A stretch of 32,000 nucleotides of DNA from Cylindrospermopsis raciborskii Cr2010. GTDB lineage: Bacteria > Cyanobacteriota > Cyanobacteriia > Cyanobacteriales > Nostocaceae. Both the position numbers and the translations under genes were made by a program. The notes beneath the pieces are model-generated. The model saw nothing but the letters and a program-made list of their open reading frames with translations, searched no databases and was not told the DNA's origin. Location: the NCBI RefSeq assembly GCF_003367075.2, contig NZ_CP065936.1, positions 420,001 to 452,000 on the forward strand, read 5' to 3'. Shown piece by piece: positions 3,793 through 24,746 of this stretch; the first letter of the stretch is position 1; each line of letters opens with the position of its first letter.

Positions 3793-3867
3793 GATTAATT
3801 ATATAACTAATTATACAAATATAGATAAGTAATAGACACTAACAACTTATTAATTTAAATTTATCAT

Positions 3868-5466: not shown

Positions 5467-5676
5467 ATACCCCCGTGAGAAGGGTTTTCTCAACCTGAGA
5501 TTTTTCTCTACTTAAAGCAGTACGAAGTAACATGGGAGTTTGGAACTGATATTGACACCACGCTCAATGCCCATTTTTGGCAATAGCGATCGCAAACTGC
5601 ATTGCATAACTAAAATAAACAGAATTAATGTTATAAAAAATGGCTTAAAGAAATGTAGACTAAGTGCCATATCCCC

Positions 5677-5860
5677 TTGACTTATGCAAGAAATATGATA
5701 TTATTCAGACGGTGAGGTAATTAATAGCCTCGCGTGGAAATAAAATATAAGTCAAACCATAAGGTGCAGATCTTTGACGGTCTACATGATCTCAGTTCGT
5801 GCCAACCAGACTCACCCACCCAAGTAACTACAAGAGTCGAGTGGTAAGGATTCTCTTACC
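5677..5860 (+). ncRNA. R element copy R1: promoter plus candidate structured small RNA (unassigned family)
   Basis: TTGACT (5677-5682), a 16-nt spacer, then TATTAT. The following ~140 nt has no ORF longer than 13 codons. Predicted helices are GGTGC 5763-5767 with GTGCC 5799-5803, and GACTC with GAGTC. A terminal hairpin pairs GGTAAG with CTTACC (5843-5860). Confidence 0.4.
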
Positions 5861-5948
5861 CCAGCCTAAAAACCTCTTGAAATATATTCAGGTAGCATAA
5901 CCACTCTGGAAGATTGCCTTGACCAATATCTTTTAACCAAGAGCGATC
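5858..5948 (+). repeat. hicB-tail module (last 43 bp of hicB plus 48 bp downstream), present five times
   Basis: The same ~91 bp (accccagcctaaaaacctcttgaaatatattcaggtagcataaccactctggaagattgccttgaccaatatcttttaaccaagagcgatc) occurs at 5858-5948, 6491-6581 (the native hicB end), 9196-9286, 13204-13294 and 15813-15903. Confidence 0.85.
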
Positions 5949-6102: not shown

Positions 6103-6309
6103 ATGCCTAAAAAAATTCGAGAACTAAAGGCAATGTTGTTAAAAGCCGGGTTTATCCAACGGACTGGTAAAGGTAGTCACACAATCTGGATTCACGAAAA
6201 AATGCCAGATATGCCAATAACAATTGCAGGTAAGGATGGTGACGATGCTAAAATCTATTTAGAGAAACAAGTTAAACAAAGACTCGCAAGACTAGAAGAA
6301 TTGCAATGA
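6103..6309 (+). CDS. hicA: Type II toxin-antitoxin system HicA-family toxin
   Basis: KIRELKAMLLKAGF...GKGSHTIWIH matches the HicA/YcfA mRNA-interferase pattern. There is a 4-bp ATGA overlap with the next ORF. Confidence 0.75.
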   Translation: MPKKIRELKAMLLKAGFIQRTGKGSHTIWIHEKMPDMPITIAGKDGDDAKIYLEKQVKQRLARLEELQ

Positions 6310-6533
6310 ATTCACATTACAGTATGATTATTTTCTGGTCTCAAGAGGATAACTGCTATGTAGTCCACCTCCCTGACTTCCCTTTTCAAGACATCCACAC
6401 CCACGGGAATACTTATGAGGAAGCAGCCAAACATGGTCAGCAAGTGATTGACAGTTATCTTCAGCTTTATCAAGAAAATAACCAACCTCTACCCCAGCCT
6501 AAAAACCTCTTGAAATATATTCAGGTAGCATAA
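6306..6533 (+). CDS. hicB: Type II toxin-antitoxin system HicB-family antitoxin
   Basis: YSMIIFWSQEDNCYVVHLPDFP...THGNTYEEAAKHGQQVIDSYL matches the HicB/UPF0150 N-terminal domain pattern. It is translationally coupled to hicA. Confidence 0.75.
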   Translation: MNSHYSMIIFWSQEDNCYVVHLPDFPFQDIHTHGNTYEEAAKHGQQVIDSYLQLYQENNQPLPQPKNLLKYIQVA

Positions 6534-6644
6534 CCACTCTGGAAGATTGCCTTGACCAATATCTTTTAACCAAGAGCGATCGCCATCAGTTCAAGCGCGA
6601 TATCACCAACACCGACAGCCTAGCTGCTGAGTTTGTCGCCTTTG

Positions 6645-6731
6645 ACAATTGCAGGTAAAGATGGTAAAGATGCTAAAATCTATTTAGAAAAACAACTTAA
6701 ACAAAGACTCGCAAGACTAGAAGAATTGCAA
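6645..6731 (+). pseudogene. 3' fragment of a diverged hicA paralog
   Basis: These 87 bp are homologous to hicA 6220-6306 (ITIAGKDG.DAKIYLEKQ.KQRLARLEELQ) with several substitutions and no start codon. Identical copies lie at 13358-13444 and 15967-16053. Confidence 0.7.
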
Positions 6732-6755
6732 GGAACTGTTGCAAAATGCAGAAAC

Positions 6756-6913
6756 GGAGCCATATCCCGTTGGTCTGTTGGGTTTCGTGCCTCAACCCAA
6801 CCTACGATTACCCACGACAAAACCAGTCGGGTACGGAGCCATATCCCGTTGGTCTGTTGGGTTTCGTGCCTCAACCCAACCTACGATTACCCACGACAAA
6901 ACCAGTCGGGTAA
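6756..6913. repeat. 79-bp tandem repeat x2, each unit carrying a GTTGGGTT-N9-AACCCAAC hairpin
   Basis: The units start at 6756 and 6835 (ggagccatatcccgttggtctgttgggtttcgtgcctcaacccaacctacgattacccacgacaaaaccagtcgggta). The hairpin stem of the first unit pairs 6777-6784 with 6794-6801. Confidence 0.85.
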
Positions 6914-7299
6914 GGGTTGGACATCACTATCCTTCCCTCCCCTAAGAACCGGACTTGACAGTTTCCTCCGGCTCAAGCCTTACTTCAAGCCTTTCAACTT
7001 GGGTTTTGAGTGTGCCTGTTTATGAGAGACTGAGTGCAAATACTTCAGGTTTTCTATGTCGTCCAGACCACCTTTTGCAACAGGTACTATGTGGTGGGTT
7101 TCGATTCCATCTCCATTGAGTAGTGGTTCACCGCAGATGGGACATTTTGCTCTCGACCGTTTAGATTTTTGACTTCCACCCCTAGTCTCTTACAGAGAGC
7201 TAACACTTTCTTTTTCGAGGGTTTGATAAGGAATTCCGTCACGGGTAATTCATTGGCGATCTCCCACAGGGAGTGCTTCCCAATCCCCCTTAACCGCAC
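6769..7299 (-). mobile_element. Degenerate, internally deleted group II-intron-derived insertion (copy 1 of 3)
   Basis: The minus strand starts GTGCGG at 7299-7294. It carries a frameshifted intron-protein C-terminus with an HNH motif and a domain-V-like hairpin, GAGCCGGA...TCCGGTTC (6974-6946). Its borders are defined by comparison with the uninterrupted site at 5661-5682. Confidence 0.55.
6980..7299 (-). pseudogene. Remnant of a group II intron-encoded protein C-terminus (HNH endonuclease domain), frameshifted
   Basis: The frame ending at stop 6982-6980 reads KSKRSRAKCPICGEPLLNGDGIETHHIVPVAKGGLDDIENLKYLHSVSHKQAH, a CxxC...HH...GG...N...H HNH pattern. Track ORF 7087-7299 is in a different frame. 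No RT domain is present. Confidence 0.6.
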
Positions 7300-7302
7300 C
7301 CC

Positions 7303-7474
7303 TTGACTTATAGGAAAAACCTGATATTATATTTTCACGGGTTAAATAACCCTGCCACATACGAATAAAATATCAAGTAAACAATAAGGTGCTGAACTTT
7401 GACGGTCTACATGATCTCGGTTCGTACCAACCAGACTCATCCACCCAAGTAACTACAAGAGTCGAGTGGTAAGG
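7303..7474 (+). ncRNA. R element copy R3a: promoter plus candidate structured small RNA
   Basis: TTGACT (7303-7308), a 16-nt spacer, then TATTAT. Predicted structures are a GGGTT-aaat-AACCC hairpin, a helix pairing GGTGC 7388-7392 with GTACC 7424-7428 extended by GAAC/GTTC, an inner GGTC-tacat-GATC hairpin, and GACTC paired with GAGTC. Confidence 0.4.
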
Positions 7475-7494
7475 GGTCTTTGTCTCAATTTTAG

Positions 7495-7620
7495 ACTACA
7501 ATCAATAATTACCCACAGTTTGAGCAGCGGTTAAGTTTGATAGAGACTATACTAGCAAATAAGTTCCCAGACTTGACCAAGGAGATGATTATGCAGTTGC
7601 AAGTCTCGTTTTTACCAAGA
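7495..7620 (+). pseudogene. C-terminal fragment of a Rpn/YhgA-like (DUF4351-type) protein gene
   Basis: The translation FEQRLSLIETILANKFPDLTKEMIMQL resembles, from memory, the conserved LIETILVYKFPxLSREEI tail of cyanobacterial Rpn-family/DUF4351 proteins. There is no upstream coding body. Copies lie at 14208-14333 and 16817-16942. Confidence 0.4.
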
Positions 7621-7882
7621 GATTCGGATGGAGGCCCTACAAGAGGGAGAACGGCGTGGGAGAGAAAAGGGAAGAGAGGAAGGACAGCGAAGGAAAAACC
7701 TGAGTCCCAATTTGACCTTGTTACAGTTGTTAGGAACGAATGAGGAGGAGAGTGGGAAGATAGGTAACGACAGGAGAATTTCTACCGACGGTTTTTTATG
7801 AATTTCCAGGTACATGGGGGTTTGGGACTGATAAGAAGCTATGTAATAGTAAATTAAACCGATTGAGTCAATACCAAAGTGA

Positions 7883-8791
7883 ATGGGAGGTATAGATATG
7901 GTGAGGCAAGTTCCACCCAAAACTCAACTGGGGGTGATAAAATCTAACATTAATCAGGTTGGGGAGACAATCGTCCCTGAAATTGTCTACCCAGAAAGTG
8001 ATGGTGAACCCATGGCGGATAATACTAGGCAATTCACATGGATTGTCAAAATCAAGGAGAATTTAGAAATACTATTTAAGTGTAATGCGGATGTGTTTGT
8101 AGCTGGGGACTTATTTTGGTATCCAGTGAAGGGTAGTAACAAAATTAAACTAGCTCCCGATACCATGGTGGTGTTTGGGAGACCCAAGGGACACCGGGGG
8201 TCTTATCGACAGTGGGAGGAGGATAATATTCCTCCCCAGGTGGTGTTTGAAATTTTATCTCCTGGTAATAGTCAAGATGAAATGGACAAAAAAAAGCTGT
8301 TTTATCTGAAACATGGAGTAGAAGAGTATTATGTGTATGACCCAGATAGAATTAGTCTAGAAGTATCTATTAGGGAAAACAATTCATTTAAAGAGATTAA
8401 GGATTTTAGTGTTTGGACTAGTCCAAGACTGAATGTACGGTTTGATATGACGGGAGATGAATTAGTCATCTACTATCAAGATGGTGGTAGGTTTCTTAGT
8501 CCTGTAGAGTTGAGCAATTATGCAGAACAAGAAAATCAACGTGCAGAACGGGAAAGACTGCTTAAAGAACAAGAAAGATTTCTGAAAGAGCAGGAAACTC
8601 AACGTGCAGAACGGGAAAAACTGCTTAAAGAGCAGGAAACTCAACGTGCAGAACGGGAAAAACTGCTTAAAGAGCAGGAAACTCAGCGTGCAGAACAGGA
8701 AAGACTGCTTAAAGAGCAGGAACAACTAAAGTATCAAACCTTACTAGCACAATTAAAAGCAAAGGGTATTGATATCAGTACACTCGAATAA
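7883..8791 (+). CDS. Uma2-family (DUF820) PD-(D/E)XK endonuclease with C-terminal coiled-coil repeats, copy 1 (302 aa)
   Basis: Motifs are YPESDGEPMADNTRQF, APDTMVVFG, EILSPGN..DE.DKKKLFY..GVEEYYVYDP, then a tail with four QRAE modules and LLAQLKAKGIDISTLE. A GGAGG lies 7 nt before the second ATG (7898), so the true start may be 15 nt later. Confidence 0.85.
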   Translation: MGGIDMVRQVPPKTQLGVIKSNINQVGETIVPEIVYPESDGEPMADNTRQFTWIVKIKENLEILFKCNADVFVAGDLFWYPVKGSNKIKLAPDTMVVFGRPKGHRGSYRQWEEDNIPPQVVFEILSPGNSQDEMDKKKLFYLKHGVEEYYVYDPDRISLEVSIRENNSFKEIKDFSVWTSPRLNVRFDMTGDELVIYYQDGGRFLSPVELSNYAEQENQRAERERLLKEQERFLKEQETQRAEREKLLKEQETQRAEREKLLKEQETQRAEQERLLKEQEQLKYQTLLAQLKAKGIDISTLE

Positions 8792-9019
8792 ACTATTACC
8801 TGGACCGGAATACCCCCGTGAGAAGGGTTTTCTCAACCTGAGATTTTTCTCTACTTAAAGCAGTACGAAGTAACATGGGAGTTTGGAACTGATATTGACA
8901 CCATGCTCAATGCCCATTTTTGGCAATAGCGATCGCAAACTGCATTGCATAACTAAAATAAACAGAATTAATGTTATAAAAAATGGCTTAAAGAAATGTA
9001 GACTAAGTGCCATATCCCC

Positions 9020-9198
9020 TTGACTTATGCAAGAAATATGATATTATCAGACAGGTAATTAATAGCCTCGTGTGGAAATAAAATATAAGTCAAACCATAA
9101 GGTGCAGAGCTTTGACGGTCTACATGATCTCAGTTCGTGCCAACCAGACTCACCCACCCAAGTAACTACAAGAGTCGAGTGGTAAGGATTCTCTTACC
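9020..9198 (+). ncRNA. R element copy R2 (R1-type variant)
   Basis: It has the same promoter (TTGACT 9020-9025) and body as R1, with small indels in the 5' hairpin region. It ends in the GGTAAG-gattct-CTTACC hairpin where it is fused to the hicB-tail module. Confidence 0.4.
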
Positions 9199-9390
9199 CC
9201 AGCCTAAAAACCTCTTGAAATATATTCAGGTAGCATAACCACTCTGGAAGATTGCCTTGACCAATATCTTTTAACCAAGAGCGATCGCCCGACTGCTAAC
9301 CAATAATCACCCGTAAGGTGACGAGTTGCCTTTTACTTTAAAGAAGCCATGTTATAGTAAGTTAAACCGATTGAGTCAATACCAAAGTGA

Positions 9391-10341
9391 ATGGGAGGTA
9401 TAGATATGGTGAGGCAAGTTCCACCAAAAACTCAACTGGGGGTGGTAAAATCTAACATTAATCAGGTTGGGGAGACGATCGCGTCTGAAATTGTCTACCC
9501 AGAAAGTGATGGTGAACCCATGGCGGATAATACTAGGCAATTCACATGGATTGTCAAAATAAAGGAGAATTTAGAAATACTATTTAAGTATAATGCGGAT
9601 GTGTTTGTGGCTGGGGACTTATTTTGGTATCCAGTGAAGGGTAGTAACAAAATTAAACTAGCTCCCGATACCATGGTGGTGTTTGGGAGACCCAAGGGAC
9701 ACCGGGGGTCTTATCGACAGTGGGAAGAAGATAATATTCCTCCCCAGGTGGTGTTTGAAATTTTATCTCCTGGTAATAGTCAAGATGAAATGGACAAAAA
9801 AAAGCTGTTTTATCTGAAACATGGAGTAGAAGAGTATTATGTGTATGACCCAGATAGGATTAGTCTAGAAGTATCTATTAGAGAAAATAATTCATTTAAA
9901 GAGATTAAGGATTTTAGTGTTTGGACTAGTCCAAGACTGAATGTACGGTTTGATATGACGGGAGATGAATTAGTCATCTACTATCCAGATGGTGGTAGGT
10001 TTCTTAGTCCTGTAGAGTTGAGCAATTATGCAGAACAAGAAAATCAACGTGCAGAACGGGAAAAACTGCTTAAAGAGCAGGAAACTCAGCGTGCAGAACG
10101 GGAAAAACTGCTTAAAGAGCAGGAAACTCAGCGTGCAGAACGGGAAAAACTGCTTAAAGAGCAGGAAACTCAACGTGCAGAACGGGAAAAACTGCTTAAA
10201 GAGCAGGAAACTCAACGTGCAGAACAGGAAAGACTGCTTAAAGAACAGGAAAAATTTCTGAAAGAGCAGGAACAACTAAAATATCAAACCTTACTAGCAC
10301 AATTAAAAGCTAAGGGTATTGATATCAGCACACTCGAATAA
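9391..10341 (+). CDS. Uma2-family endonuclease, copy 2 (316 aa)
   Basis: It has the same domain motifs as copy 1 with the N-terminal variant VVKSNINQVGETIASE and KYNAD. The tail has five QRAE modules. Confidence 0.85.
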   Translation: MGGIDMVRQVPPKTQLGVVKSNINQVGETIASEIVYPESDGEPMADNTRQFTWIVKIKENLEILFKYNADVFVAGDLFWYPVKGSNKIKLAPDTMVVFGRPKGHRGSYRQWEEDNIPPQVVFEILSPGNSQDEMDKKKLFYLKHGVEEYYVYDPDRISLEVSIRENNSFKEIKDFSVWTSPRLNVRFDMTGDELVIYYPDGGRFLSPVELSNYAEQENQRAEREKLLKEQETQRAEREKLLKEQETQRAEREKLLKEQETQRAEREKLLKEQETQRAEQERLLKEQEKFLKEQEQLKYQTLLAQLKAKGIDISTLE

Positions 10342-10380
10342 ACTATTACCTGGACCAGAATACCCCCGTGAGAAGGGTTT

Positions 10381-10398
10381 TCTCAACCTGAGATTTTT
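10381..10398 (+). terminator. Weak hairpin plus T-run after the Uma2 stop
   Basis: TCTCA-acc-TGAGA is followed by TTTTT. It recurs after copies 1, 2, 3 and 6 and after the 5326 fragment. It is deleted after copies 4 and 5. Confidence 0.25.
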
Positions 10399-10440
10399 CT
10401 CTACTTAAAACAGTACGAAGTAAGTCGTCCATGGCAAGGG

Positions 10441-10470
10441 TTGCTGATTTTGCCCAGTCAGGGTTATAAT
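10441..10470 (+). promoter_or_regulatory. Candidate promoter P_D (TTGCTG-N18-TATAAT) between Uma2 copies
   Basis: TTGCTG is at 10441-10446 and a perfect TATAAT at 10465-10470, about 240 nt upstream of the next Uma2 start. The same module lies at 11759-11788, 12971-13000, 15580-15609 and 18242-18271. Confidence 0.4.
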
Positions 10471-10708
10471 GTGGGTGCCAAAAGTAAGGCGGCTTTATCT
10501 AACGGATTTGAGGGAAAGGCAAAACCTGAGTCCCAATTTGACCTTGTTACAGTTGTTAGGAACGAATGAGGAGGAGAGTGGGAAGATAGGTAACGACAGG
10601 AGAATTTCTACCGACGGTTTTTTCTGAATTTCCAGGTACATGGGGGTTTGGGACTGATAAGAAGCTATGTAATAGTAAATTAAACCGATTGAGTCAATAC
10701 CAAAGTGA

Positions 10709-11659
10709 ATGGGAGGTATAGATATGGTGAGGCAAGTTCCACCAAAAACTCAACTGGGGGTGGTAAAATCCAATAAAAATCAGCTTGGGGAGACGATCGC
10801 GTCTGAAATTGTCTACCCAGAAAGTGATGGTGAACCCATGGCGGATAATACTAGGCAATTCACATGGATTGTCAAAATAAAGGAGAATTTAGAAATACTA
10901 TTTAAGTATAATGCGGATGTGTTTGTAGCTGGGGACTTATTTTGGTATCCAGTGAAGGGTAGTAACAAAATTAAACTAGCTCCCGATACCATGGTGGTGT
11001 TTGGGAGACCCAAGGCACACCGGGGGTCTTATCGACAGTGGGAAGAAGATAATATTCCTCCCCAGGTGGTGTTTGAAATTTTATCTCCTGGTAATAGTCA
11101 AGATGAAATGGACAAAAAAAAGCTGTTTTATCTGAAACATGGAGTAGAAGAGTATTATGTGTATGACCCAGATAGGATTAGTCTAGAAGTATCTATTAGA
11201 GAAAATAATTCATTTAAAGAGATTAAGGATTTTAGTGTTTGGACTAGTCCAAGACTGAATGTACGGTTTGATATGACGGGAGATGAATTAGTCATCTACT
11301 ATCCAGATGGTGGTAGGTTTCTTAGTCCTGTAGAGTTGAGCAATTATGCAGAACAAGAAAATCAACGTGCAGAACGGGAAACTCAGCGTGCAGAACGGGA
11401 AAAACTGCTTAAAGAGCAGGAAACTCAGCGTGCAGAACGGGAAAAACTGCTTAAAGAGCAGGAAACTCAACGTGCAGAACGGGAAAAACTGCTTAAAGAA
11501 CAGGAAAAATTTCTGAAAGAGCAGGAAACTCAACGTGCAGAACAGGAAAGACTGCTTAAAGAACAGGAAAAATTTCTGAAAGAGCAGGAACAACTAAAAT
11601 ATCAAACCTTACTAGCACAATTAAAAGCTAAGGGTATTGATATCAGCACACTCGAATAA
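10709..11659 (+). CDS. Uma2-family endonuclease, copy 3 (316 aa)
   Basis: It carries the variants KSNKNQLGETIASE and KAHRGS. The tail has five QRAE modules in a different arrangement, including a truncated QRAERET unit. Confidence 0.85.
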   Translation: MGGIDMVRQVPPKTQLGVVKSNKNQLGETIASEIVYPESDGEPMADNTRQFTWIVKIKENLEILFKYNADVFVAGDLFWYPVKGSNKIKLAPDTMVVFGRPKAHRGSYRQWEEDNIPPQVVFEILSPGNSQDEMDKKKLFYLKHGVEEYYVYDPDRISLEVSIRENNSFKEIKDFSVWTSPRLNVRFDMTGDELVIYYPDGGRFLSPVELSNYAEQENQRAERETQRAEREKLLKEQETQRAEREKLLKEQETQRAEREKLLKEQEKFLKEQETQRAEQERLLKEQEKFLKEQEQLKYQTLLAQLKAKGIDISTLE

Positions 11660-12026
11660 ACTATTACCTGGACCAGAATACCCCCGTGAGAAGGGTTTTC
11701 TCAACCTGAGATTTTTCTCTACTTAAAACAGTACGAAGTAAGTCGTCCATGGCAAGGGTTGCTGATTTTGCCCAGTCAGGGTTATAATGTGGGTGCCAAA
11801 AGTAAGGCGGCTTTATCTAACGGATTTGAGGGAAAGGCAAAACCTGAGTCCCAATTTGACCTTGTTACAGTTGTTAGGAACGAATGAGGAGGAGAGTGGG
11901 AAGATAGGTAACGACAGGAGAATTTCTACCGACGGTTTTTTCTGAATTTCCAGGTACATGGGGGTTTGGGACTGATAAGAAGCTATGTAATAGTAAATTA
12001 AACCGATTGAGTCAATACCAAAGTGA

Positions 12027-12935
12027 ATGGGAGGTATAGATATGGTGAGGCAAGTTCCACCAAAAACTCAACTGGGGGTGGTAAAATCCAATAAAAATCA
12101 GCTTGGGGAGACGATCGCGTCTGAAATTGTCTACCCAGAAAGTGATGGTGAACCCATGGCGGATAATACTAGGCAATTCACATGGATTGTCAAAATAAAG
12201 GAGAATTTAGAAATACTATTTAAGTATAATGCGGATGTGTTTGTAGCTGGGGACTTATTTTGGTATCCAGTGAAGGGTAGTAACAAAATTAAACTAGCTC
12301 CCGATACCATGGTGGTGTTTGGGAGACCCAAGGCACACCGGGGGTCTTATCGACAGTGGGAAGAAGATAATATTCCTCCCCAGGTGGTGTTTGAAATTTT
12401 ATCTCCTGGTAATAGTCAAGATGAAATGGACAAAAAAAAGCTGTTTTATCTGAAACATGGAGTAGAAGAGTATTATGTGTATGACCCAGATAGGATTAGT
12501 CTAGAAGTATCTATTAGGGAAAACAATTCATTTAAAGAGATTAAGGATTTTAGTGTTTGGACTAGTCCAAGACTGAATGTACGGTTTGATATGACGGGAG
12601 ATGAATTAGTCATCTATTATCCAGATGGTGGTAGGTTTCTTAGTCCTGTAGAGTTGAGCAATTATGCAGAACAAGAAAATCAACGTGCAGAACGGGAAAA
12701 ACTGCTTAAAGAGCAGGAAACTCAGCGTGCAGAACGGGAAAAACTGCTTAAAGAGCAGGAAACTCAACGTGCAGAACGGGAAAAACTGCTTAAAGAACAA
12801 GAAAGATTTCTGAAAGAGCAGGAAACTCAACGTGCAGAACAGGAAAGACTGCTTAAAGAGCAGGAACAACTAAAGTATCAAACCTTACTAGCACAATTAA
12901 AAGCTAAGGGTATTGATATCAGCACACTCGAATAA
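12027..12935 (+). CDS. Uma2-family endonuclease, copy 4 (302 aa), chimeric
   Basis: The 5' part matches copy 3 through 12494. From 12495 onward the sequence matches copy 5. Confidence 0.85.
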   Translation: MGGIDMVRQVPPKTQLGVVKSNKNQLGETIASEIVYPESDGEPMADNTRQFTWIVKIKENLEILFKYNADVFVAGDLFWYPVKGSNKIKLAPDTMVVFGRPKAHRGSYRQWEEDNIPPQVVFEILSPGNSQDEMDKKKLFYLKHGVEEYYVYDPDRISLEVSIRENNSFKEIKDFSVWTSPRLNVRFDMTGDELVIYYPDGGRFLSPVELSNYAEQENQRAEREKLLKEQETQRAEREKLLKEQETQRAEREKLLKEQERFLKEQETQRAEQERLLKEQEQLKYQTLLAQLKAKGIDISTLE

Positions 12936-13072
12936 ACTATTACCTGGACCGGATACCCCCGTGAGAAGGGTTGCTGATTTTGCCCAGTCAGGGTTATAAT
13001 GTGGGTGCAAAGTTACCTTCCTTAAATTAGAAAACTGGATTTCATCCTGATGCAAAAGTTTTATTAAATTTA

Positions 13073-13245
13073 GTAGTCCACCTCCCTGACTTCCCTTTTC
13101 AAGACATCCACACCCACGGGAATACTTATGAGGAAGCAGCCAAACATGGTCAGCAAGTGATTGACAGTTATCTTCAGCTTTATCAAGAAAATAACCAACC
13201 TCTACCCCAGCCTAAAAACCTCTTGAAATATATTCAGGTAGCATA
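13073..13245 (+). pseudogene. 3' fragment of hicB (173 bp, no start codon)
   Basis: It is identical to hicB 6360-6533 at a constant offset of 6713. The block 6360-7882 is re-used at 13073-14635 and 15682-17244, apart from a 41-bp indel. Confidence 0.8.
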
Positions 13246-13468
13246 ACCACTCTGGAAGATTGCCTTGACCAATATCTTTTAACCAAGAGCGATCGCCATC
13301 AGTTCAAGCGCGATATCACCAACACCGACAGCCTAGCTGCTGAGTTTGTCGCCTTTGACAATTGCAGGTAAAGATGGTAAAGATGCTAAAATCTATTTAG
13401 AAAAACAACTTAAACAAAGACTCGCAAGACTAGAAGAATTGCAAGGAACTGTTGCAAAATGCAGAAAC

Positions 13469-13626
13469 GGAGCCATATCCCGTTGGTCTGTTGGGTTTCG
13501 TGCCTCAACCCAACCTACGATTACCCACGACAAAACCAGTCGGGTACGGAGCCATATCCCGTTGGTCTGTTGGGTTTCGTGCCTCAACCCAACCTACGAT
13601 TACCCACGACAAAACCAGTCGGGTAA
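13469..13626. repeat. 79-bp tandem repeat x2 (second locus)
   Basis: Same sequence as 6756-6913, at offset 6713. Confidence 0.85.
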
Positions 13627-14012
13627 GGGTTGGACATCACTATCCTTCCCTCCCCTAAGAACCGGACTTGACAGTTTCCTCCGGCTCAAGCCTTACTTCA
13701 AGCCTTTCAACTTGGGTTTTGAGTGTGCCTGTTTATGAGAGACTGAGTGCAAATACTTCAGGTTTTCTATGTCGTCCAGACCACCTTTTGCAACAGGTAC
13801 TATGTGGTGGGTTTCGATTCCATCTCCATTGAGTAGTGGTTCACCGCAGATGGGACATTTTGCTCTCGACCGTTTAGATTTTTGACTTCCACCCCTAGTC
13901 TCTTACAGAGAGCTAACACTTTCTTTTTCGAGGGTTTGATAAGGAATTCCGTCACGGGTAATTCATTGGCGATCTCCCACAGGGAGTGCTTCCCAATCCC
14001 CCTTAACCGCAC
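13482..14012 (-). mobile_element. Group II-intron-derived insertion (copy 2 of 3)
   Basis: Identical to 6769-7299 at offset 6713. Confidence 0.55.
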
Positions 14013-14015
14013 CCC

Positions 14016-14187
14016 TTGACTTATAGGAAAAACCTGATATTATATTTTCACGGGTTAAATAACCCTGCCACATACGAATAAAATATCAAGTAAACAATAA
14101 GGTGCTGAACTTTGACGGTCTACATGATCTCGGTTCGTACCAACCAGACTCATCCACCCAAGTAACTACAAGAGTCGAGTGGTAAGG
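14016..14187 (+). ncRNA. R element copy R3b
   Basis: Identical to 7303-7474 (TTGACT at 14016-14021). Confidence 0.4.
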
Positions 14188-14635
14188 GGTCTTTGTCTCA
14201 ATTTTAGACTACAATCAATAATTACCCACAGTTTGAGCAGCGGTTAAGTTTGATAGAGACTATACTAGCAAATAAGTTCCCAGACTTGACCAAGGAGATG
14301 ATTATGCAGTTGCAAGTCTCGTTTTTACCAAGAGATTCGGATGGAGGCCCTACAAGAGGGAGAACGGCGTGGGAGAGAAAAAGGAAGAGAGGAAAGACAG
14401 CGAACGAAGAGTAACGCGGCTTTATCTAACGGATTTGAGGGAAAGGCAAAACCTGAGTCCCAATTTGACCTTGTTACAGTTGTTAGGAACGAATGAGGAG
14501 GAGAGTGGGAAGATAGGTAACGACAGGAGAATTTCTACCGACGGTTTTTTCTGAATTTCCAGGTACATGGGGGTTTGGGACTGATAAGAAGCTATGTAAT
14601 AGTAAATTAAACCGATTGAGTCAATACCAAAGTGA

Positions 14636-15544
14636 ATGGGAGGTATAGATATGGTGAGGCAAGTTCCACCCAAAACTCAACTGGGGGTGATAAAATCTAA
14701 CATTAATCAGGTTGGGGAGACAATCGTCCCTGAAATTGTCTACCCAGAAAGTGATGGTGAACCCATGGCGGATAATACTAGGCAATTCACATGGATTGTC
14801 AAAATCAAGGAGAATTTAGAAATACTATTTAAGTGTAATGCGGATGTGTTTGTAGCTGGGGACTTATTTTGGTATCCAGTGAAGGGTAGTAACAAAATTA
14901 AACTAGCTCCCGATACCATGGTGGTGTTTGGGAGACCCAAGGGACACCGGGGGTCTTATCGACAGTGGGAGGAGGATAATATTCCTCCCCAGGTGGTGTT
15001 TGAAATTTTATCTCCTGGTAATACTCAAGATGAAATGGACAAAAAAAAGCTGTTTTATCTGAAACATGGAGTAGAAGAGTATTATGTGTATGACCCAGAT
15101 AGAATTAGTCTAGAAGTATCTATTAGGGAAAACAATTCATTTAAAGAGATTAAGGATTTTAGTGTTTGGACTAGTCCAAGACTGAATGTACGGTTTGATA
15201 TGACGGGAGATGAATTAGTCATCTATTATCCAGATGGTGGTAGGTTTCTTAGTCCTGTAGAGTTGAGCAATTATGCAGAACAAGAAAATCAACGTGCAGA
15301 ACGGGAAAAACTGCTTAAAGAGCAGGAAACTCAGCGTGCAGAACGGGAAAAACTGCTTAAAGAGCAGGAAACTCAACGTGCAGAACGGGAAAAACTGCTT
15401 AAAGAACAAGAAAGATTTCTGAAAGAGCAGGAAACTCAACGTGCAGAACAGGAAAGACTGCTTAAAGAGCAGGAACAACTAAAGTATCAAACCTTACTAG
15501 CACAATTAAAAGCTAAGGGTATTGATATCAGCACACTCGAATAA
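14636..15544 (+). CDS. Uma2-family endonuclease, copy 5 (302 aa)
   Basis: The N-terminal haplotype matches copy 1 (VIKSNINQVGETIVPE, KCNAD) with NTQDE in place of NSQDE. The tail is identical to copy 4. Confidence 0.85.
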   Translation: MGGIDMVRQVPPKTQLGVIKSNINQVGETIVPEIVYPESDGEPMADNTRQFTWIVKIKENLEILFKCNADVFVAGDLFWYPVKGSNKIKLAPDTMVVFGRPKGHRGSYRQWEEDNIPPQVVFEILSPGNTQDEMDKKKLFYLKHGVEEYYVYDPDRISLEVSIRENNSFKEIKDFSVWTSPRLNVRFDMTGDELVIYYPDGGRFLSPVELSNYAEQENQRAEREKLLKEQETQRAEREKLLKEQETQRAEREKLLKEQERFLKEQETQRAEQERLLKEQEQLKYQTLLAQLKAKGIDISTLE

Positions 15545-15681
15545 ACTATTACCTGGACCGGATACCCCCGTGAGAAGGGTTGCTGATTTTGCCCAGTCAG
15601 GGTTATAATGTGGGTGCAAAGTTACCTTCCTTAAATTAGAAAACTGGATTTCATCCTGATGCAAAAGTTTTATTAAATTTA

Positions 15682-15854
15682 GTAGTCCACCTCCCTGACT
15701 TCCCTTTTCAAGACATCCACACCCACGGGAATACTTATGAGGAAGCAGCCAAACATGGTCAGCAAGTGATTGACAGTTATCTTCAGCTTTATCAAGAAAA
15801 TAACCAACCTCTACCCCAGCCTAAAAACCTCTTGAAATATATTCAGGTAGCATA
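15682..15854 (+). pseudogene. 3' fragment of hicB (second truncated copy)
   Basis: Identical to 13073-13245 at offset 2609. Confidence 0.8.
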
Positions 15855-16077
15855 ACCACTCTGGAAGATTGCCTTGACCAATATCTTTTAACCAAGAGCG
15901 ATCGCCATCAGTTCAAGCGCGATATCACCAACACCGACAGCCTAGCTGCTGAGTTTGTCGCCTTTGACAATTGCAGGTAAAGATGGTAAAGATGCTAAAA
16001 TCTATTTAGAAAAACAACTTAAACAAAGACTCGCAAGACTAGAAGAATTGCAAGGAACTGTTGCAAAATGCAGAAAC

Positions 16078-16235
16078 GGAGCCATATCCCGTTGGTCTGT
16101 TGGGTTTCGTGCCTCAACCCAACCTACGATTACCCACGACAAAACCAGTCGGGTACGGAGCCATATCCCGTTGGTCTGTTGGGTTTCGTGCCTCAACCCA
16201 ACCTACGATTACCCACGACAAAACCAGTCGGGTAA
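16078..16235. repeat. 79-bp tandem repeat x2 (third locus)
   Basis: Same sequence as 6756-6913. Confidence 0.85.
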
Positions 16236-16621
16236 GGGTTGGACATCACTATCCTTCCCTCCCCTAAGAACCGGACTTGACAGTTTCCTCCGGCTCAAGC
16301 CTTACTTCAAGCCTTTCAACTTGGGTTTTGAGTGTGCCTGTTTATGAGAGACTGAGTGCAAATACTTCAGGTTTTCTATGTCGTCCAGACCACCTTTTGC
16401 AACAGGTACTATGTGGTGGGTTTCGATTCCATCTCCATTGAGTAGTGGTTCACCGCAGATGGGACATTTTGCTCTCGACCGTTTAGATTTTTGACTTCCA
16501 CCCCTAGTCTCTTACAGAGAGCTAACACTTTCTTTTTCGAGGGTTTGATAAGGAATTCCGTCACGGGTAATTCATTGGCGATCTCCCACAGGGAGTGCTT
16601 CCCAATCCCCCTTAACCGCAC
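16091..16621 (-). mobile_element. Group II-intron-derived insertion (copy 3 of 3)
   Basis: Identical to 13482-14012 at offset 2609. Confidence 0.55.
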
Positions 16622-16624
16622 CCC

Positions 16625-16796
16625 TTGACTTATAGGAAAAACCTGATATTATATTTTCACGGGTTAAATAACCCTGCCACATACGAATAAAATATCAAGT
16701 AAACAATAAGGTGCTGAACTTTGACGGTCTACATGATCTCGGTTCGTACCAACCAGACTCATCCACCCAAGTAACTACAAGAGTCGAGTGGTAAGG
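16625..16796 (+). ncRNA. R element copy R3c
   Basis: Identical to 14016-14187. Confidence 0.4.
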
Positions 16797-17244
16797 GGTC
16801 TTTGTCTCAATTTTAGACTACAATCAATAATTACCCACAGTTTGAGCAGCGGTTAAGTTTGATAGAGACTATACTAGCAAATAAGTTCCCAGACTTGACC
16901 AAGGAGATGATTATGCAGTTGCAAGTCTCGTTTTTACCAAGAGATTCGGATGGAGGCCCTACAAGAGGGAGAACGGCGTGGGAGAGAAAAAGGAAGAGAG
17001 GAAAGACAGCGAACGAAGAGTAACGCGGCTTTATCTAACGGATTTGAGGGAAAGGCAAAACCTGAGTCCCAATTTGACCTTGTTACAGTTGTTAGGAACG
17101 AATGAGGAGGAGAGTGGGAAGATAGGTAACGACAGGAGAATTTCTACCGACGGTTTTTTCTGAATTTCCAGGTACATGGGGGTTTGGGACTGATAAGAAG
17201 CTATGTAATAGTAAATTAAACCGATTGAGTCAATACCAAAGTGA

Positions 17245-18132
17245 ATGGGAGGTATAGATATGGTGAGGCAAGTTCCACCCAAAACTCAACTGGGGGTGAT
17301 AAAATCTAACATTAATCAGGTTGGGGAGACAATCGTCCCTGAAATTGTCTACCCAGAAAGTGATGGTGAACCCATGGCGGATAATACTAGGCAATTCACA
17401 TGGATTGTCAAAATCAAGGAGAATTTAGAAATACTATTTAAGTGTAATGCGGATGTGTTTGTAGCTGGGGACTTATTTTGGTATCCAGTGAAGGGTAGTA
17501 ACAAAATTAAACTAGCTCCCGATACCATGGTGGTGTTTGGGAGACCCAAGGGACACCGGGGGTCTTATCGACAGTGGGAGGAGGATAATATTCCTCCCCA
17601 GGTGGTGTTTGAAATTTTATCTCCTGGTAATACTCAAGATGAAATGGACAAAAAAAAGCTGTTTTATCTGAAACATGGAGTAGAAGAGTATTATGTGTAT
17701 GACCCAGATAGAATTAGTTTAGAAGTATCTATTAGGGAAAATAATTCATTTAAAGAGATTAAGGATTTTAGTGTTTGGACTAGTCCAAGAATGAATGTAC
17801 GGTTTGATATGATGGGAGATGAATTAGTCATCTATTATCCAGATGGTGGTAGGTTTCTTAGTCCTGTAGAGTTGAGCAATTATGCAGAACAAGAAAATCA
17901 ACGTGCAGAACGGGAAAGACTGCTTAAAGAACAAGAAAGATTTCTGAAAGAGCAGGAAACTCGGCGTGCAGAAAAGGAAAGACTGCTTAAAGAACAAGAA
18001 AGATTTCTGAAAGAGCAAGAAACTCAACGTGCAGAACGGGAAAAACTGCTTAGAGAGCAGGAACAACTAAAGTATCAAACCTTACTAGCACAATTAAAAG
18101 CTAAGGGTATTGATATCAGCACACTCGAATAA
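17245..18132 (+). CDS. Uma2-family endonuclease, copy 6 (295 aa), most diverged
   Basis: It is identical to copy 5 up to 17718, then diverges (RMNVRFDMMGDE). The tail has three modules, with RRAEKERLL and LLREQEQ variants. Confidence 0.85.
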   Translation: MGGIDMVRQVPPKTQLGVIKSNINQVGETIVPEIVYPESDGEPMADNTRQFTWIVKIKENLEILFKCNADVFVAGDLFWYPVKGSNKIKLAPDTMVVFGRPKGHRGSYRQWEEDNIPPQVVFEILSPGNTQDEMDKKKLFYLKHGVEEYYVYDPDRISLEVSIRENNSFKEIKDFSVWTSPRMNVRFDMMGDELVIYYPDGGRFLSPVELSNYAEQENQRAERERLLKEQERFLKEQETRRAEKERLLKEQERFLKEQETQRAEREKLLREQEQLKYQTLLAQLKAKGIDISTLE

Positions 18133-18438
18133 ACTACTACCTGGACCGGAATACCCCCGTGAGAAGGGTCTTCTCAACCTGAGATTTTTCTCTACTTAAA
18201 GCAGTACGAAGTAAGTCGTCCGTGGCAAGGTTTGCTGATCTTGCCCAGTCAGGGTTATAATGTGGGTGCGGAGTTACCTTTAGATGTGTAATCGAACGAT
18301 ATAGCTGAATCTCCACCCTTAAATTAGAAAACTGGATTTCATCCTGATGCAAAAGTTTTATTCAATTTACCAGAGGTTACTAAAGAATGTAGCGAGATCC
18401 CTATGGGAGTGCTTCGCAATCGCCCTGAACCGCACTCC

Positions 18439-18610
18439 TTGACTTATACGAAAAACCTGATATTATGTTTTCACGGGTTAAATAACCCCGCCACATACGA
18501 ATAAAATATCAAGTAAACAATAAGGTACTGAGCTTTGACGGTCTACATGATCTCGGTTCGTACCAACCAGACTCGTAAACCCAAGTAGCTACAAGAGTCG
18601 ATTAGTAAGG
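18439..18610 (+). ncRNA. R element copy R4 (diverged), 128 nt upstream of the polysaccharide cluster on the same strand
   Basis: TTGACT (18439-18444), a 16-nt spacer, then TATTAT. The helix GGTAC 18524-18528 with GTACC 18560-18564 is fully Watson-Crick here. The 3' part is diverged (cgtaaaccc, gattag). Confidence 0.35.
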
Positions 18611-18737
18611 ATTCTCTGTCTCAATTTTAGCCTAGCTGATCGCCCTATCCATCCAATTAATTCCCAATTTATATATTATATATAAATAAAACTAACATAA
18701 GCCTACCCTAAAACAATAGTTCACAAGAAATCCTAAT

Positions 18738-19541
18738 ATGGTCCACGCAACAAAACCTATAATGTTAAAAGCAAGGCTCCTATACACAGCAAAAATCCTG
18801 TTTCATGTTTTGGGAGAGTTTGGATACAACCCAATTAAAATGGTAGTTTCCATCTTAGAATTACCACTTTATATTTATCAACTCACTTCATTTTCGATAA
18901 GAAGCAAAAGTCCAGTTAAGATTCGATTGTTTCCCTATTTAACTGATAGACGTGATTTTGCTGGTAGTATCAGTCGCCATTATTTCCATCAAGATCTATG
19001 GGCAGCTAGAAAGGTCTACGAGAATAAACCAGAGAATCACATTGATGTAGGATCTCGAATTGATGGTTTTGTAGCGCATTTACTCACGTTTCGTACGGTC
19101 GAAGTGCTAGATGTGAGAAAAATGACCTCTTCTGTGAAGGGAATGACCTTTAGGCAAGTTAATCTGATGGAATTTCAAAAAGTGCCTGGCAGCGTATGTG
19201 ATTCACTTTCTTGTCTTCATGCCCTGGAACACTTTGGTTTAGGTCGCTACGGGGATCCGATTGATCCCGAGGGACATATTAAAGGACTTAAGTCTTTAAC
19301 TAAGATGCTAAAATCAGGTGGGACGTTGTTGTTATCAGTTCCCACAGGAAAAGAAAGAATAGAGTTCAACGGACACCGCATTTTTTCCGTAACCACTATA
19401 CTAAATTTAACTACTAGTGACTATGACTTAGTGTCATTTTCATACATAGATGATACAAACACTTTATATGAGAACGTTGATACATCATTTGTTCCCACCA
19501 TGTTGTATGGGTGTGGACTATACGAGTTGAAAAAGAAGTAG
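18738..19541 (+). CDS. SAM-dependent methyltransferase-like protein (DUF268-type)
   Basis: HIDVGSRIDGFVAHL and SLSCLHALEHFGLGRYGDPIDPEG...LKSGGTLLLSVP resemble the DUF268/class I methyltransferase fold pattern. Confidence 0.6.
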   Translation: MVHATKPIMLKARLLYTAKILFHVLGEFGYNPIKMVVSILELPLYIYQLTSFSIRSKSPVKIRLFPYLTDRRDFAGSISRHYFHQDLWAARKVYENKPENHIDVGSRIDGFVAHLLTFRTVEVLDVRKMTSSVKGMTFRQVNLMEFQKVPGSVCDSLSCLHALEHFGLGRYGDPIDPEGHIKGLKSLTKMLKSGGTLLLSVPTGKERIEFNGHRIFSVTTILNLTTSDYDLVSFSYIDDTNTLYENVDTSFVPTMLYGCGLYELKKK

Positions 19542-19678
19542 AACATCAAAACACTACATTCCCTAAGGTTATTATAAAATACAAGCGGAACTTAACATTG
19601 AAAAGCAAAGTAACACAAATTGTTTAATTTAACAACATCAGAATCTAAAATATACTAACATGGTGTCCGACTGAAAGA

Positions 19679-21139
19679 ATGTTAAAAAATGGAGCCTATA
19701 ATATAATAGGAGCTTCGCTGCGTGCAGTAGCTGGTATAATTACGGGACCGGTTCTGTCCCGTTTAATGGGTTTGGAAGAATATGGTATTTGGGCTCTTAT
19801 CTCGTCAGTGTTAGCTTTCCTAACAGTGGTAGAGGGGGGACTATCTAATGCAATTACCGTCTTTCTTTCCAGAGATATTGCTGATAAAGATGACCTAAAG
19901 ATATCTGAGACCATAACCATTTCGCTGACCTGGATGCTAGTTTTAGCAATTTTAGCATCTGTATTCCTGTATTCAACCGCAGGAATAGTTATCAATTACT
20001 TTCCTGGGCTAAGTTCTACACAGCAGCACAACAGTATTCGAGCTTTACAGATAGGTTGTTTTTCGGTTTTGTGCCAGCTATTACAACAGGTGTTTATAGG
20101 AATTGAACAGGCATACCATGAGTATAAACTACTGAGTTTTTTAAAAACTGTACAATTTGGATCATTGAGTGTTGGATGGATTATTTCCGCCCATTTAGGT
20201 GGAGGTTCGGTTACACTTGCCACCTGGCAACTGGTTGTGACTTTAATTGTTCTAGGTTGGCACATTTATGTGGTTAGAGCTTTGACTAAAGATCACAATC
20301 TACAATTTCTATGGAACAACCAAAGAGCTACCCAAATTTTTCGCTACAATTTAGCAATGTGGTTAATGACGATTGGAGGAATCTTATTTACACGTGGTGA
20401 TAGAATTGTCGTGGGTTCGGTCTTAGGTCCAGAGTCTCTGGCCATTTATGCCATAGTAAGTGATGTTGCATCTGGAATAAATTTCCTTGTAGCGCAGCCA
20501 ATTCAACCATTTTTACCTGTGGTTAGTCGCCTTGCACTAGACTCTACCTCCTTGCATGCTCTCCAAAATAAGTTTAGACAGGTCATCCAAATAAATAGCT
20601 GTATGGCGGTTTGGTCTGGATCACTTGTTTTAATTTTCTCCCCACTTGTTATTAGTTATGCGATTGGATTGAAGGGTAGTGAGTACAATACTGCATTGTT
20701 TTGTCTTCAAGCATTGGCACTGATAACCACCATACAGTCTCTTTGTAACACCGGCTACTATGTTTTTATGAGTCAAGATGTTAGATATTTGGCATCAATA
20801 TTGTTTATAGGTGGGTTTTCATCTATACTACTAATATATCTAGGATCGCTAGGATATGGTTTAGTGGGATCAATTATTGGAAATTTTGGCTACAACATAA
20901 TGACCATTTGCACTTTTAAATCTGCCGAGAAATTCGGTATTAGTTATAGGTTAACTTTTACTTATATGGCTTTTCCAATGTTTTTGTTTTTCATGACATT
21001 TGCCATGAATTACATATTTTATTTCCCTCACTCCATTTTCTCATTTTTACTAGTCTTGCAGTGCTGTGTGGTTCTGACCTGGTTTGCTTTCCAAAATAAT
21101 ATCCGTATTCCTACAATTATTAGGAGTTTAGGAAGATAA
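19679..21139 (+). CDS. Wzx-like oligosaccharide flippase (MOP superfamily polysaccharide biosynthesis protein)
   Basis: It is 486 aa and hydrophobic throughout, with about 12-14 predicted helices. It sits in a glycan cluster. Confidence 0.7.
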   Translation: MLKNGAYNIIGASLRAVAGIITGPVLSRLMGLEEYGIWALISSVLAFLTVVEGGLSNAITVFLSRDIADKDDLKISETITISLTWMLVLAILASVFLYSTAGIVINYFPGLSSTQQHNSIRALQIGCFSVLCQLLQQVFIGIEQAYHEYKLLSFLKTVQFGSLSVGWIISAHLGGGSVTLATWQLVVTLIVLGWHIYVVRALTKDHNLQFLWNNQRATQIFRYNLAMWLMTIGGILFTRGDRIVVGSVLGPESLAIYAIVSDVASGINFLVAQPIQPFLPVVSRLALDSTSLHALQNKFRQVIQINSCMAVWSGSLVLIFSPLVISYAIGLKGSEYNTALFCLQALALITTIQSLCNTGYYVFMSQDVRYLASILFIGGFSSILLIYLGSLGYGLVGSIIGNFGYNIMTICTFKSAEKFGISYRLTFTYMAFPMFLFFMTFAMNYIFYFPHSIFSFLLVLQCCVVLTWFAFQNNIRIPTIIRSLGR

Positions 21140-21213
21140 ATCCGTCAATCAACAACCATAAAGTTACCGGATTTGCCAGTCATAGCGAAAAGCAATCACT
21201 ATTTTCATTATTC

Positions 21214-24694: not shown

Positions 24695-24746
24695 ATTCTC
24701 AAACCAGTGTAATATGCAATATACTGGTGCAGTGTAATAACTGTAA

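Follow-up and report, generated by a model that had tools for sequence, protein, structure and literature searches.

Uma2 is, to our knowledge, among the most abundant cyanobacterial protein families without a known function. It has been described as a "likely solo toxin ... cassettes of paralogous genes", such cassettes being typical of cyanobacteria, and the passage concerned classes it with toxin-antitoxin-like mobile modules (Makarova, Wolf and Koonin 2009, PMC2701414); elsewhere it is called a "predicted endonuclease" (PMC3424549). Expansion of uma2 to 15-17 copies, together with tandem arrays of up to 11 rpn copies, has been reported in Thermosynechococcus TA-1 and CL-1 (Cheng et al. 2022, PMC9403480). 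Here we describe an array of Uma2 genes in Cylindrospermopsis raciborskii (Cylindrospermopsis/Raphidiopsis) Cr2010, contained in a 32,000-nt stretch of DNA (the window) whose positions serve for all coordinates below. The protein has three parts, namely a nuclease domain (approximately residues 30-205), a rod built of heptads, and a conserved C-terminal end of 20 residues. We propose, with moderate confidence, that the array is a lineage-specific tandem amplification of one conserved Nostocales gene, driven by recombination and maintained by selection, and that its product is a nuclease of candidate toxin or defense type. The evolutionary part of this account can be read from the genomes themselves, and its functional part is one that we infer.

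The Cr2010 genes share with the cassettes of 2009 (PMC2701414) their family (COG4636), their phylum, and the solo-toxin arrangement of same-family genes side by side in one orientation, here six in a row, with no dedicated antitoxin. That passage describes the cassettes just as neighboring paralogues and gives neither identity nor copy number, and we take them to be short and divergent. In contrast, the arrays described here hold from 6 to at least 16 units that are 93-100% identical and bear marks of ongoing unequal crossing-over, and every copy falls in a single orthologous subfamily, of which almost all other taxa examined have just one copy. The Thermosynechococcus case (PMC9403480) is alike in being a strain-specific expansion of PD-(D/E)XK-type nucleases in a cyanobacterium, seen by genome comparison, but there it is rpn that is arrayed while uma2 is counted and not described as arrays, whereas here Uma2 is arrayed and a DUF2887 neighbor has decayed. 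The initial annotation of this DNA had called a locally amplified array unusual. As far as paralogue cassettes go this does not hold, since they have been known since 2009, but the copy number and near-identity of the units are indeed unusual, as is the heptad-stepped rod, and only 2 of the 80 closest loci of other taxa carry tandem copies.

Tandem amplification and recombination at the Cr2010 locus

Six intact Uma2 open reading frames (ORFs; 295-316 aa) lie head-to-tail on the + strand, at the positions and in the family first assigned to them (Table 1). Their start-to-start distances are 1508, 1318, 1318, 2609 and 2609 bp; the last four had been given exactly and the first had been omitted. 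The true start codon is likely the second ATG (MVRQ...), which lies 15 nt downstream of each ORF start, has GGGAGG 7 nt before it, and is the start used in GenBank. Because the six proteins are exact matches to the UJL34031-34038 series, each labelled "Uma2 family endonuclease", the genes were already annotated, and a search of the literature open to us found no paper describing the Cr2010 array. Besides the Uma2 genes, the only intact ORFs between 5.3 and 18.7 kb are hicA and hicB, a pair of their own. A gene fragment had also been placed at 5326; it exists, but its real position is 5328-5466, where it corresponds to residues 59-109 (tblastn). Since strain G7 and C. curvispora have at least four intact copies at this position, the remnant is a relic of a seventh copy, from a sub-array left of hicAB.

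The duplications are nested. A short unit of 1318 bp consists of a gene and a 382-nt spacer, and a long unit of 2609 bp consists of a gene and a 1715-nt spacer of debris. The identity of the 2609-bp units over about 5.2 kb, noticed at the outset, is exact across the whole two-copy block (Table 1), and its lack of any mismatch indicates a very recent event, in keeping with the very recent amplification first proposed. Beyond the perfect block, 11798-15580 and 14407-18169 are 98.4% identical, with 39 mismatches, and a third exact block pairs 6360-7668 with 13073-14381. Judged by their length and sequence, repeats of 1-2.6 kb at 93-100% identity cannot be chance.

Gene 5 is an exact chimera: over its first 474 nt it matches gene 6 without a difference, and the part from nt 469 onward is that of gene 4, again without a difference. 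It reads as the expected product of a single unequal crossover between genes 4 and 6, and so carries the signature of unequal crossing-over. Two haplotypes can be told apart, one in genes 1, 5 and 6 and the other in genes 2, 3 and 4; genes 3 and 4 are mutually closest, and the 5' 468 nt of gene 4 are of the gene 3 type. The six nuclease domains are mutually 96-100% identical, with those of genes 3-5 being 96-99% identical to that of gene 1. In G7 the units form a three-gene higher-order repeat of 4332 bp. Unequal homologous crossing-over and gene conversion among units, which we count as demonstrated, add and remove whole units, and the same events also yield chimeric genes and higher-order repeats (1318 to 2609 bp in Cr2010, 4332 bp in G7). 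Within the genes, 21-nt repeats gain and lose units in frame, a step that we likewise regard as demonstrated, and copies therefore have a common catalytic domain but unequal rod lengths. Short-read contigs of several metagenomes begin at window positions 18674-18702. Arrays of this kind break short-read assemblies, and Uma2 genes are liable to be under-counted in draft genomes and metagenome bins.

Distribution and selection

A protein search returned 7119 homologues at E <1e-20. The best 120 of these, which we inspected, are nearly all from Cylindrospermopsis, each complete genome having many distinct variants; the proteins are 269-351 aa long. Uma2 arrays are genus-wide, with a copy number that varies between strains. 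Where Cr2010 has one remnant left of hicAB and six genes to the right, G7 has at least four and at least nine, and C. curvispora GIHE-G1, beside the same GTPase gene, has four and at least two, so that the variation in copy number at the locus is real. The two arrays of G7 hold at least 28 complete copies between them. The second is made of a different sequence type (type 2, as against type 1 at the Cr2010 locus) and holds at least 16 complete copies, with spacers of 549 nt in 11 of the 12 measured and of 525 nt in the other. At least 46 kb of the G7 genome, more than 1% of it, is thus taken up by Uma2 arrays. Strain CS-505 has at least six intact copies and two frameshifted ones, and Cr2010 encodes type 2 proteins elsewhere in its genome.

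Outside the genus the picture is different. All 79 orthologues read from other taxa have the three-part architecture, and 77 of them are single-copy. Two tandem copies were found in Sphaerospermopsis (1040-bp period) and in one Nostocaceae bin, and about 30 Nostoc genomes have a single orthologue in the order panB-uma2-trmFO. With only these 2 of 80 loci being tandem and the Nostoc genomes being single-copy, the amplification is specific to the Cylindrospermopsis/Sphaerospermopsis lineage. The gaps in the Nostoc gene order are 38-50 nt (for example in our loci L039 and L051), which suggests co-transcription with the housekeeping genes. At the Cr2010 locus itself, another strain has no Uma2, and two draft strains have a different Uma2 paralogue. 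In these two C. raciborskii drafts the locus looks single-copy, but it is not an array that has collapsed, and the gene there is not the ancestral one, as the paralogue is only 30% identical; it encodes 324 aa (L097:1868-2842 and L098:156-1130, both on the - strand), with a nuclease domain, a charged helical stretch and an LGINPD-type end. The site between the DUF697 GTPase and the polysaccharide genes behaves as a replaceable Uma2 slot.

Several observations speak for selection on the nuclease domain. Pairwise ratios of non-synonymous to synonymous divergence (dN/dS) in the domain are 0.18-0.19 in type 1 and 0.36-0.39 in type 2, with synonymous divergence reaching 6-8%. Type 1 variants comprise 24 synonymous and 24 non-synonymous changes, where 79% non-synonymous would be expected (p = 6.6e-6), and type 2 also has a deficit of non-synonymous variants (p = 0.03); third codon positions are 2-3 times more variable than first and second positions. 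All 34 complete copies of the window and G7 are open, while the co-amplified DUF2887 is frameshifted. Because dN/dS is low, non-synonymous variants are in deficit, and every copy is open while DUF2887 is dead, the Uma2 copies are maintained as working genes, and the sequences indicate that the nuclease domain is under purifying selection. The suggestion that the locus is diversifying does not apply to this domain, given its dN/dS of 0.18-0.39 and the significant deficit; variation is mostly in heptad number, and by our alignments the chief difference between copies is rod length.

The DNA just upstream of the genes is also conserved. A 58-nt proximal region at all six genes has an extended -10-like motif, TGTAATAGT/TGTTATAGT (TGT(A/T)ATAGT), the motif TTGAGTCAA and the GGGAGG ribosome-binding site. 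Genes 1-3 have it in almost the same form, as do Sphaerospermopsis and the type 2 arrays of G7 and CS-505, despite unrelated DNA farther upstream, and it may be the own promoter and leader of each gene. If so, each gene would be its own expression cassette by virtue of the extended -10 and the ribosome-binding site. Selection keeps the nuclease genes intact, while the co-amplified DUF2887, hicA and hicB pieces and intron piece decay in the spacers; the property selected may be dosage or a repertoire of rod lengths.

It is also conceivable that the array is a neutral by-product of DNA that is rich in repeats and so recombines often, with copies being intact through youth or through overwriting by gene conversion, and with copy number and rod length being meaningless. 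One might expect this from the identical blocks of 1.0-2.6 kb, the spacers of pure debris and the widely different copy numbers between strains. We think it unlikely, because copies that have diverged by 6-8% at synonymous sites still have a dN/dS of about 0.2 with a marked non-synonymous deficit, DUF2887 has decayed in the very units in which Uma2 stays open, and both array types and the sister genus have kept the proximal 58 nt.

Alternatively, the Uma2 cassette might spread for itself with no gain to the host, either by cutting near its own gene so that repair duplicates it, or as an addictive solo toxin. The classing of Uma2 with mobile toxin-antitoxin-like modules in the passage by Makarova et al. 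(PMC2701414) would suit such selfish amplification, and so would the setting of the array among hicAB, intron debris and short dispersed repeats, the differing content of the locus in other strains, and one Uma2 copy that adjoins an IS630 transposase on a C. curvispora plasmid. Against this, orthologues are single-copy and stably syntenic in some 30 Nostoc genomes, the units are not bounded by a transposase, inverted repeats or target duplications, and copies have been added only side by side, a pattern that homologous recombination suffices to produce. Searches of phages and viral contigs found no homologues, and a plasmid search found only scattered single copies. We therefore regard selfish amplification as quite unlikely.

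Protein architecture and possible function

A Pfam scan covered genes 1, 2 and 6, which match Uma2 (PF05685) with 59.2-60.4 bits (cut-off 27; E about 2e-16). D88 (in APD), E118 and S121 (in EILS) and K132/K133 are invariant in 27 variants, as is the stretch GVEEYYVYDP, and the domain aligns with the uncharacterized Uma2 structures 6OKH and 9Y1L over E-I-L-S...K...G-V-E-Y...D-P (EILSEGN...K). We presume from knowledge of the family, with its PD ... E-x-L-S ... K site, which of these residues are catalytic. The product would most likely be a DNA-directed nuclease of the "solo toxin / defense candidate" kind.

The rod is made of 7-residue (21-nt) units, ETQRAER, E(K/R)LLKEQ and E(R/K)FLKEQ, that are rich in E, R, K and Q, and Tandem Repeats Finder (TRF) reports periods of 21, 42 and 63 nt within the genes. 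Across the genus, rods have 2-20 heptads, and 153 of 154 variants have equal tail length modulo 7. Phase-variable on/off switching was not found: the 21-nt unit keeps the frame, as the same 153 of 154 variants attest. AlphaFold predicts the tail as a single unbroken helix over residues 202-281 with a confidence score (pLDDT) of about 90. The rod is 54-61% charged with a further 12-25% Gln, and has about 0.2 opposite-charge pairs per residue at i+4, with i+3 being similar; orthologue rods, built of ExQRAEQ repeats, have 0-3% bulky hydrophobic residues. A canonical coiled coil was considered for the tail and rejected, since a/d hydrophobic occupancy in the best register is 0.25-0.31, versus 0.80 in the GCN4 zipper. 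Our preferred, though unproven, reading of the model is that the rod would form a charged single alpha-helix of the ER/K type. Beyond the rod, the C-terminal end YQTLLAQLKAKGIDISTLE (with KGID) is conserved in the 79 orthologues from other taxa, and it recurs as KLAARLRSLGINPDDI in the paralogue that is only 30% identical.

We speculate, and consider it doubtful, that the rod may act as a rigid spacer, a single helix whose length fixes how far the nuclease domain is from a docking target of the KGID end. The arrays would then encode a graded set of otherwise identical nucleases with 2-20 heptads (about 2-21 nm), reshuffled by crossing-over and 21-nt slippage. If this is true, they would form a repertoire of nucleases diversified in length, a way of varying that is not described for any defense or toxin system. 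In any case, the Cylindrospermopsis copies are a naturally occurring series of proteins in which rod length is almost the only variable, and in this genus a single Uma2 subfamily has been amplified to dozens of selected, intact copies. It follows from the account we favor that copy number, rod length or both may matter to the cell.

A different kind of repertoire, one resembling an immune system, would have copies that differ in target specificity, so that the array holds many specificities at once. There are indeed two sequence types with mosaics between them, and variable residues cluster at 5-28, 123-129 (just after the E-x-L-S motif) and 168-185; the domain also has a weak match to the defense candidate PDC-S03. 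Yet most of these variable sites merely separate type 1 from type 2, the dN/dS of the domain is well below 1, and the six domains of the window are 96-100% identical. Nor is there mutagenic machinery. A search for a diversity-generating retroelement (DGR) turned up neither a DGR reverse transcriptase nor a pair of template and variable repeats; all it found was the 3' end of a group II intron, truncated and frameshifted. Such a diversifying repertoire is very unlikely.

To return to our account of a recombining array under selection that encodes a toxin or defense-type nuclease, a number of points weigh against it. AlphaFold, run on a shallow alignment of 27 close homologues, gave pLDDT <50 over residues 1-173, which makes the model of the domain unusable, and because of this the PD-(D/E)XK fold is assigned from sequence. 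The proximal promoter is likewise a reading at the level of consensus motifs, and if gene conversion kept copying one selected master gene over the others, every copy could look as if it were under purifying selection. A role in defense gains no support from the lack of phage or viral homologues and of a partner methyltransferase: no DNA methyltransferase ORF of a restriction-modification system lies in or beside the array, and the DUF268 methyltransferase-like gene at 18738 is the first of a polysaccharide cluster. Nor does it gain any from the cyanophage CrV-01T, which infects Cr2010 (PMC12481020), and the arrays therefore do not block that phage. Lastly, an assembler could in principle have produced the 2609-bp duplication, which has no mismatch, as an artefact. 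That the array or its perfect 2 x 2609-bp block was over-expanded or mis-joined from fewer true copies is suggested by those 5224 nt without mismatch and by the breaking of short-read assemblies at the array edge, but we find it highly improbable, as the six copies differ from one another in heptad counts and by changes that keep the frame and are mostly synonymous, gene 5 is a clean chimera such as a real crossover gives, hicAB-anchored arrays are present in two other, independently assembled complete genomes with further arrays in G7 and CS-505, the six Cr2010 proteins have been deposited, and two adjacent copies lie in Sphaerospermopsis. A toxin or defense role remains plausible, but the defense or selfish locus suggested at first is conjecture, its only pointers being the weak PDC-S03 match and the solo-toxin proposal of 2009. 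As a lytic phage, CrV-01T on Cr2010 makes the hypotheses of toxicity, defense and dosage directly testable.

Surroundings of the array and comparison with known systems

Table 1. Positions, within the 32,000-nt window, of the Uma2 genes, repeats and other features of the locus
Feature	Position	Strand	Details
Uma2 gene remnant	5328-5466	+	internal 139 nt; 98-99% identical to 8073-8211 and equivalents in all six genes
Flank block B, copy 1	5466-5948	+	after gene; 483 nt; 98.3% identity to copy 2 at 8809-9286
hicA toxin gene	6103-6309	+	intact, 68 aa; Pfam PF07927, E 3.4e-10
hicB antitoxin gene	6306-6533	+	intact, 75 aa; Pfam PF15919, E 9.4e-07; last 174 nt within block C
Repeat block C, copy 1 of 3	6360-7695	+	1336 nt; 99.8% identity to 13073-14408 and 15682-17017
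Group II intron 3' fragment	6905-7147	-	copies 13618-13860, 16227-16469
R module	7303-7480	+	copies 5677-5860, 9020-9200, 14016-14193, 16625-16802, 18439-18616
DUF2887 (PF11103) remnant	7513-7687	+	frameshifted; residues ~216-279; tblastn
Conserved 58-nt proximal region	7840-7897	+	at all six genes
Uma2 gene 1	7898-8791	+	ORF from 7883; 297 aa from MVRQ; exact match UJL34031.1
Rod of gene 1	8531-8719	+	9 heptads
Uma2 gene 2	9406-10341	+	ORF from 9391; 311 aa; exact match UJL34032.1
Rod of gene 2	10039-10269	+	11 heptads
Tandem, period 1318	10198-12517	+	1002-nt exact core, 10198-11199 = 11516-12517
Further DUF2887 remnants	14226-14442, 16835-17051, 10390-10573, 11708-11891, 18181-18267	+	tblastn
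Uma2 gene 3	10724-11659	+	ORF from 10709; 311 aa; exact match UJL34033.1
Rod of gene 3	11357-11587	+	11 heptads
Uma2 gene 4	12042-12935	+	ORF from 12027; 297 aa; exact match UJL34034.1
Rod of gene 4	12675-12863	+	9 heptads
Perfect two-copy tandem, period 2609	12495-17718	+	5224 nt; 12495-15109 = 15104-17718, zero mismatch
Repeat block C, copy 2	13073-14408	+	spacer of genes 4-5; by sequence identity
Uma2 gene 5	14651-15544	+	ORF from 14636; 297 aa; exact match UJL34036.1
Rod of gene 5			9 heptads
Repeat block C, copy 3	15682-17017	+	spacer of genes 5-6; by sequence identity
Uma2 gene 6	17260-18132	+	ORF from 17245; 290 aa; exact match UJL34038.1
Rod of gene 6	17893-18060	+	8 heptads
Right boundary of repeated DNA	18634-18678		last R copy ends ~18634; unique DNA toward DUF268/polysaccharide genes thereafter

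The array had been described as embedded with hicAB, retroelement debris and the R element, and all of these are present, the retroelement debris being the 3' fragment of a group II intron. The same hicA also lies within the arrays of G7 and C. curvispora. Block C runs from the hicB 3' end through a hicA 3' fragment (6645-6734; 90 nt, 93% identical), a 79-nt tandem, the group II intron 3' piece and a second R module to a DUF2887 remnant. The hicB 3' fragments (last 174 nt) at 13073-13246 and 15682-15855 are 100% identical to hicB, and copy 1 of block B holds the first R module and a 44-nt hicB 3' piece, such hicB fragments lying at 5857-5900 and 9195-9238. According to TRF the 79-nt tandem is a perfect pair at 6754-6912, 13467-13625 and 16076-16234. 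The core of this repeat, GTTGGGTTTCGTGCCTCAACCCAAC, is a hairpin repeat common in Nostocales; in G7 and CS-505, every spacer of the type 2 arrays contains one inverted copy of it. Other Nostocales also have the 34-nt core, with six close copies in Anabaena sp. CRKS33 (L086:4337-4601).

The intron fragment comprises a domain V/VI-like RNA at 6905-6976 (Rfam RF00029, 36.7 bits, below the cut-off of 40; E 9.4e-05) and, at 6983-7147, a frameshifted C-terminal HNH part of the intron protein (peptide KCPICGEPLLNGDGIETHHIVPV...); an identical 52-aa ORF of G7 carries PF01844 HNH. At gathering thresholds Rfam had no match in the window, and a relaxed search gave only the sub-threshold group II intron. 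Other strains (loci L096-L100) have an intact intron reverse-transcriptase gene a few kb past a pilin gene. The 130-aa ORFs at 6633-7025, 13346-13738 and 15955-16347 (+ strand) were rejected as genes, because their reading frames run across the hicA fragment and the 79-nt repeat and, on its reverse strand, the intron piece. A Pfam scan of the small spacer ORFs at 7087-7299 (-), 7537-7743 and 7612-7920 (-) found no match, and the nature of these ORFs came from comparison with G7 and with the neighbors of orthologues.

The DUF2887 remnants were found by tblastn with the upstream neighbor of the Uma2 orthologue in locus L082, a full-length DUF2887 protein (Pfam E 4.9e-83), as the query (E 6e-05 to 1e-03); they are colinear pieces in differing frames. 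DUF2887 proteins are often annotated as Rpn-family. Directly upstream of the orthologous Uma2, 14 other loci of Nostocales have a short ORF that matches the DUF2887 C-terminal end. Every copy had at first been credited with a long 5' leader and a promoter module, P_D. Because such DUF2887-end ORFs precede Uma2 orthologues elsewhere, the "leader" is the residue of a DUF2887 neighbor that was co-duplicated and then decayed, together with other debris, and the P_D module stands only upstream of genes 1, 2, 5 and 6, at a distance of 370-620 nt, with none upstream of genes 3 and 4.

The R module begins with TTGACT-N16-TGnTATTAT, a very good match to a sigma-70-type promoter that occurs six times (at 5677, 7303, 9020, 14016, 16625 and 18439), and continues for about 130 conserved nt; it exists in two sequence variants. 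Among the loci fetched, we see it only in type 1 arrays (Cr2010, G7 and C. curvispora) and, upstream of the DUF268 gene, in the metagenome contig L001. As a structured RNA it was rejected, there being no compensatory pairs or covariation, a fold z-score of -1.64 and no Rfam family. Candidates for its nature are a small RNA, a mobile repeat and an orphan promoter.

To the left of the array, the genes at 2554-5235 (- strand) are those of a Ser/Thr kinase with an FHA domain and of a dynamin-like GTPase (DUF697). These match the PADLOC defense profiles PD-T4-6 and, weakly, LeoA/LeoBC, which is a broad family likeness, and the pair is kept in all Cylindrospermopsis loci fetched for this flank (L096-L100), with the kinase being fragmented in L096. 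To the right, a polysaccharide cluster at 18738-31829 (+ strand) encodes DUF268 methyltransferase-like, Polysacc_synt flippase, epimerase, sugar kinase-like, nucleotidyltransferase-like and other proteins. Contig L001 departs from the window within this cluster, with 86% identity over 21205-22498 and no match in between, and surface-polysaccharide genes beside the array therefore also vary between populations.

How, then, does the array compare with known systems other than the Uma2 expansions described above? Its neighbors (hicAB, intron debris and a variable locus) are island-like, and three profiles of PADLOC PDC-S03, which is itself a candidate, match the nuclease domain in part, over about 100 residues (E 4e-10 to 4e-08). 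The PDC-S03 model implies neither a rod nor a KGID end, unlike the Cr2010 Uma2. For the rod, one might look to the TAEL repeats of the type I restriction subunit HsdS and to the ER/K single alpha-helix spacers of myosins, which are repeat-built helices that set distance. The likeness, an analogy, would be that of a helix whose length changes by whole repeats between functional parts that are themselves constant. Neither has any sequence relationship with the Uma2 rod, and the resemblance would lie in possible working and not in membership. For the array as a whole, rRNA gene arrays and bacterial surface-protein gene families are tandem multigene arrays shaped by unequal crossing-over and gene conversion, and the Uma2 arrays resemble them in their chimeric junction genes, blocks of perfect identity, higher-order repeats and copy-number differences between strains. 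Where those families encode a highly expressed RNA or surface antigens, the gene amplified here encodes a predicted nuclease of cytoplasmic type.

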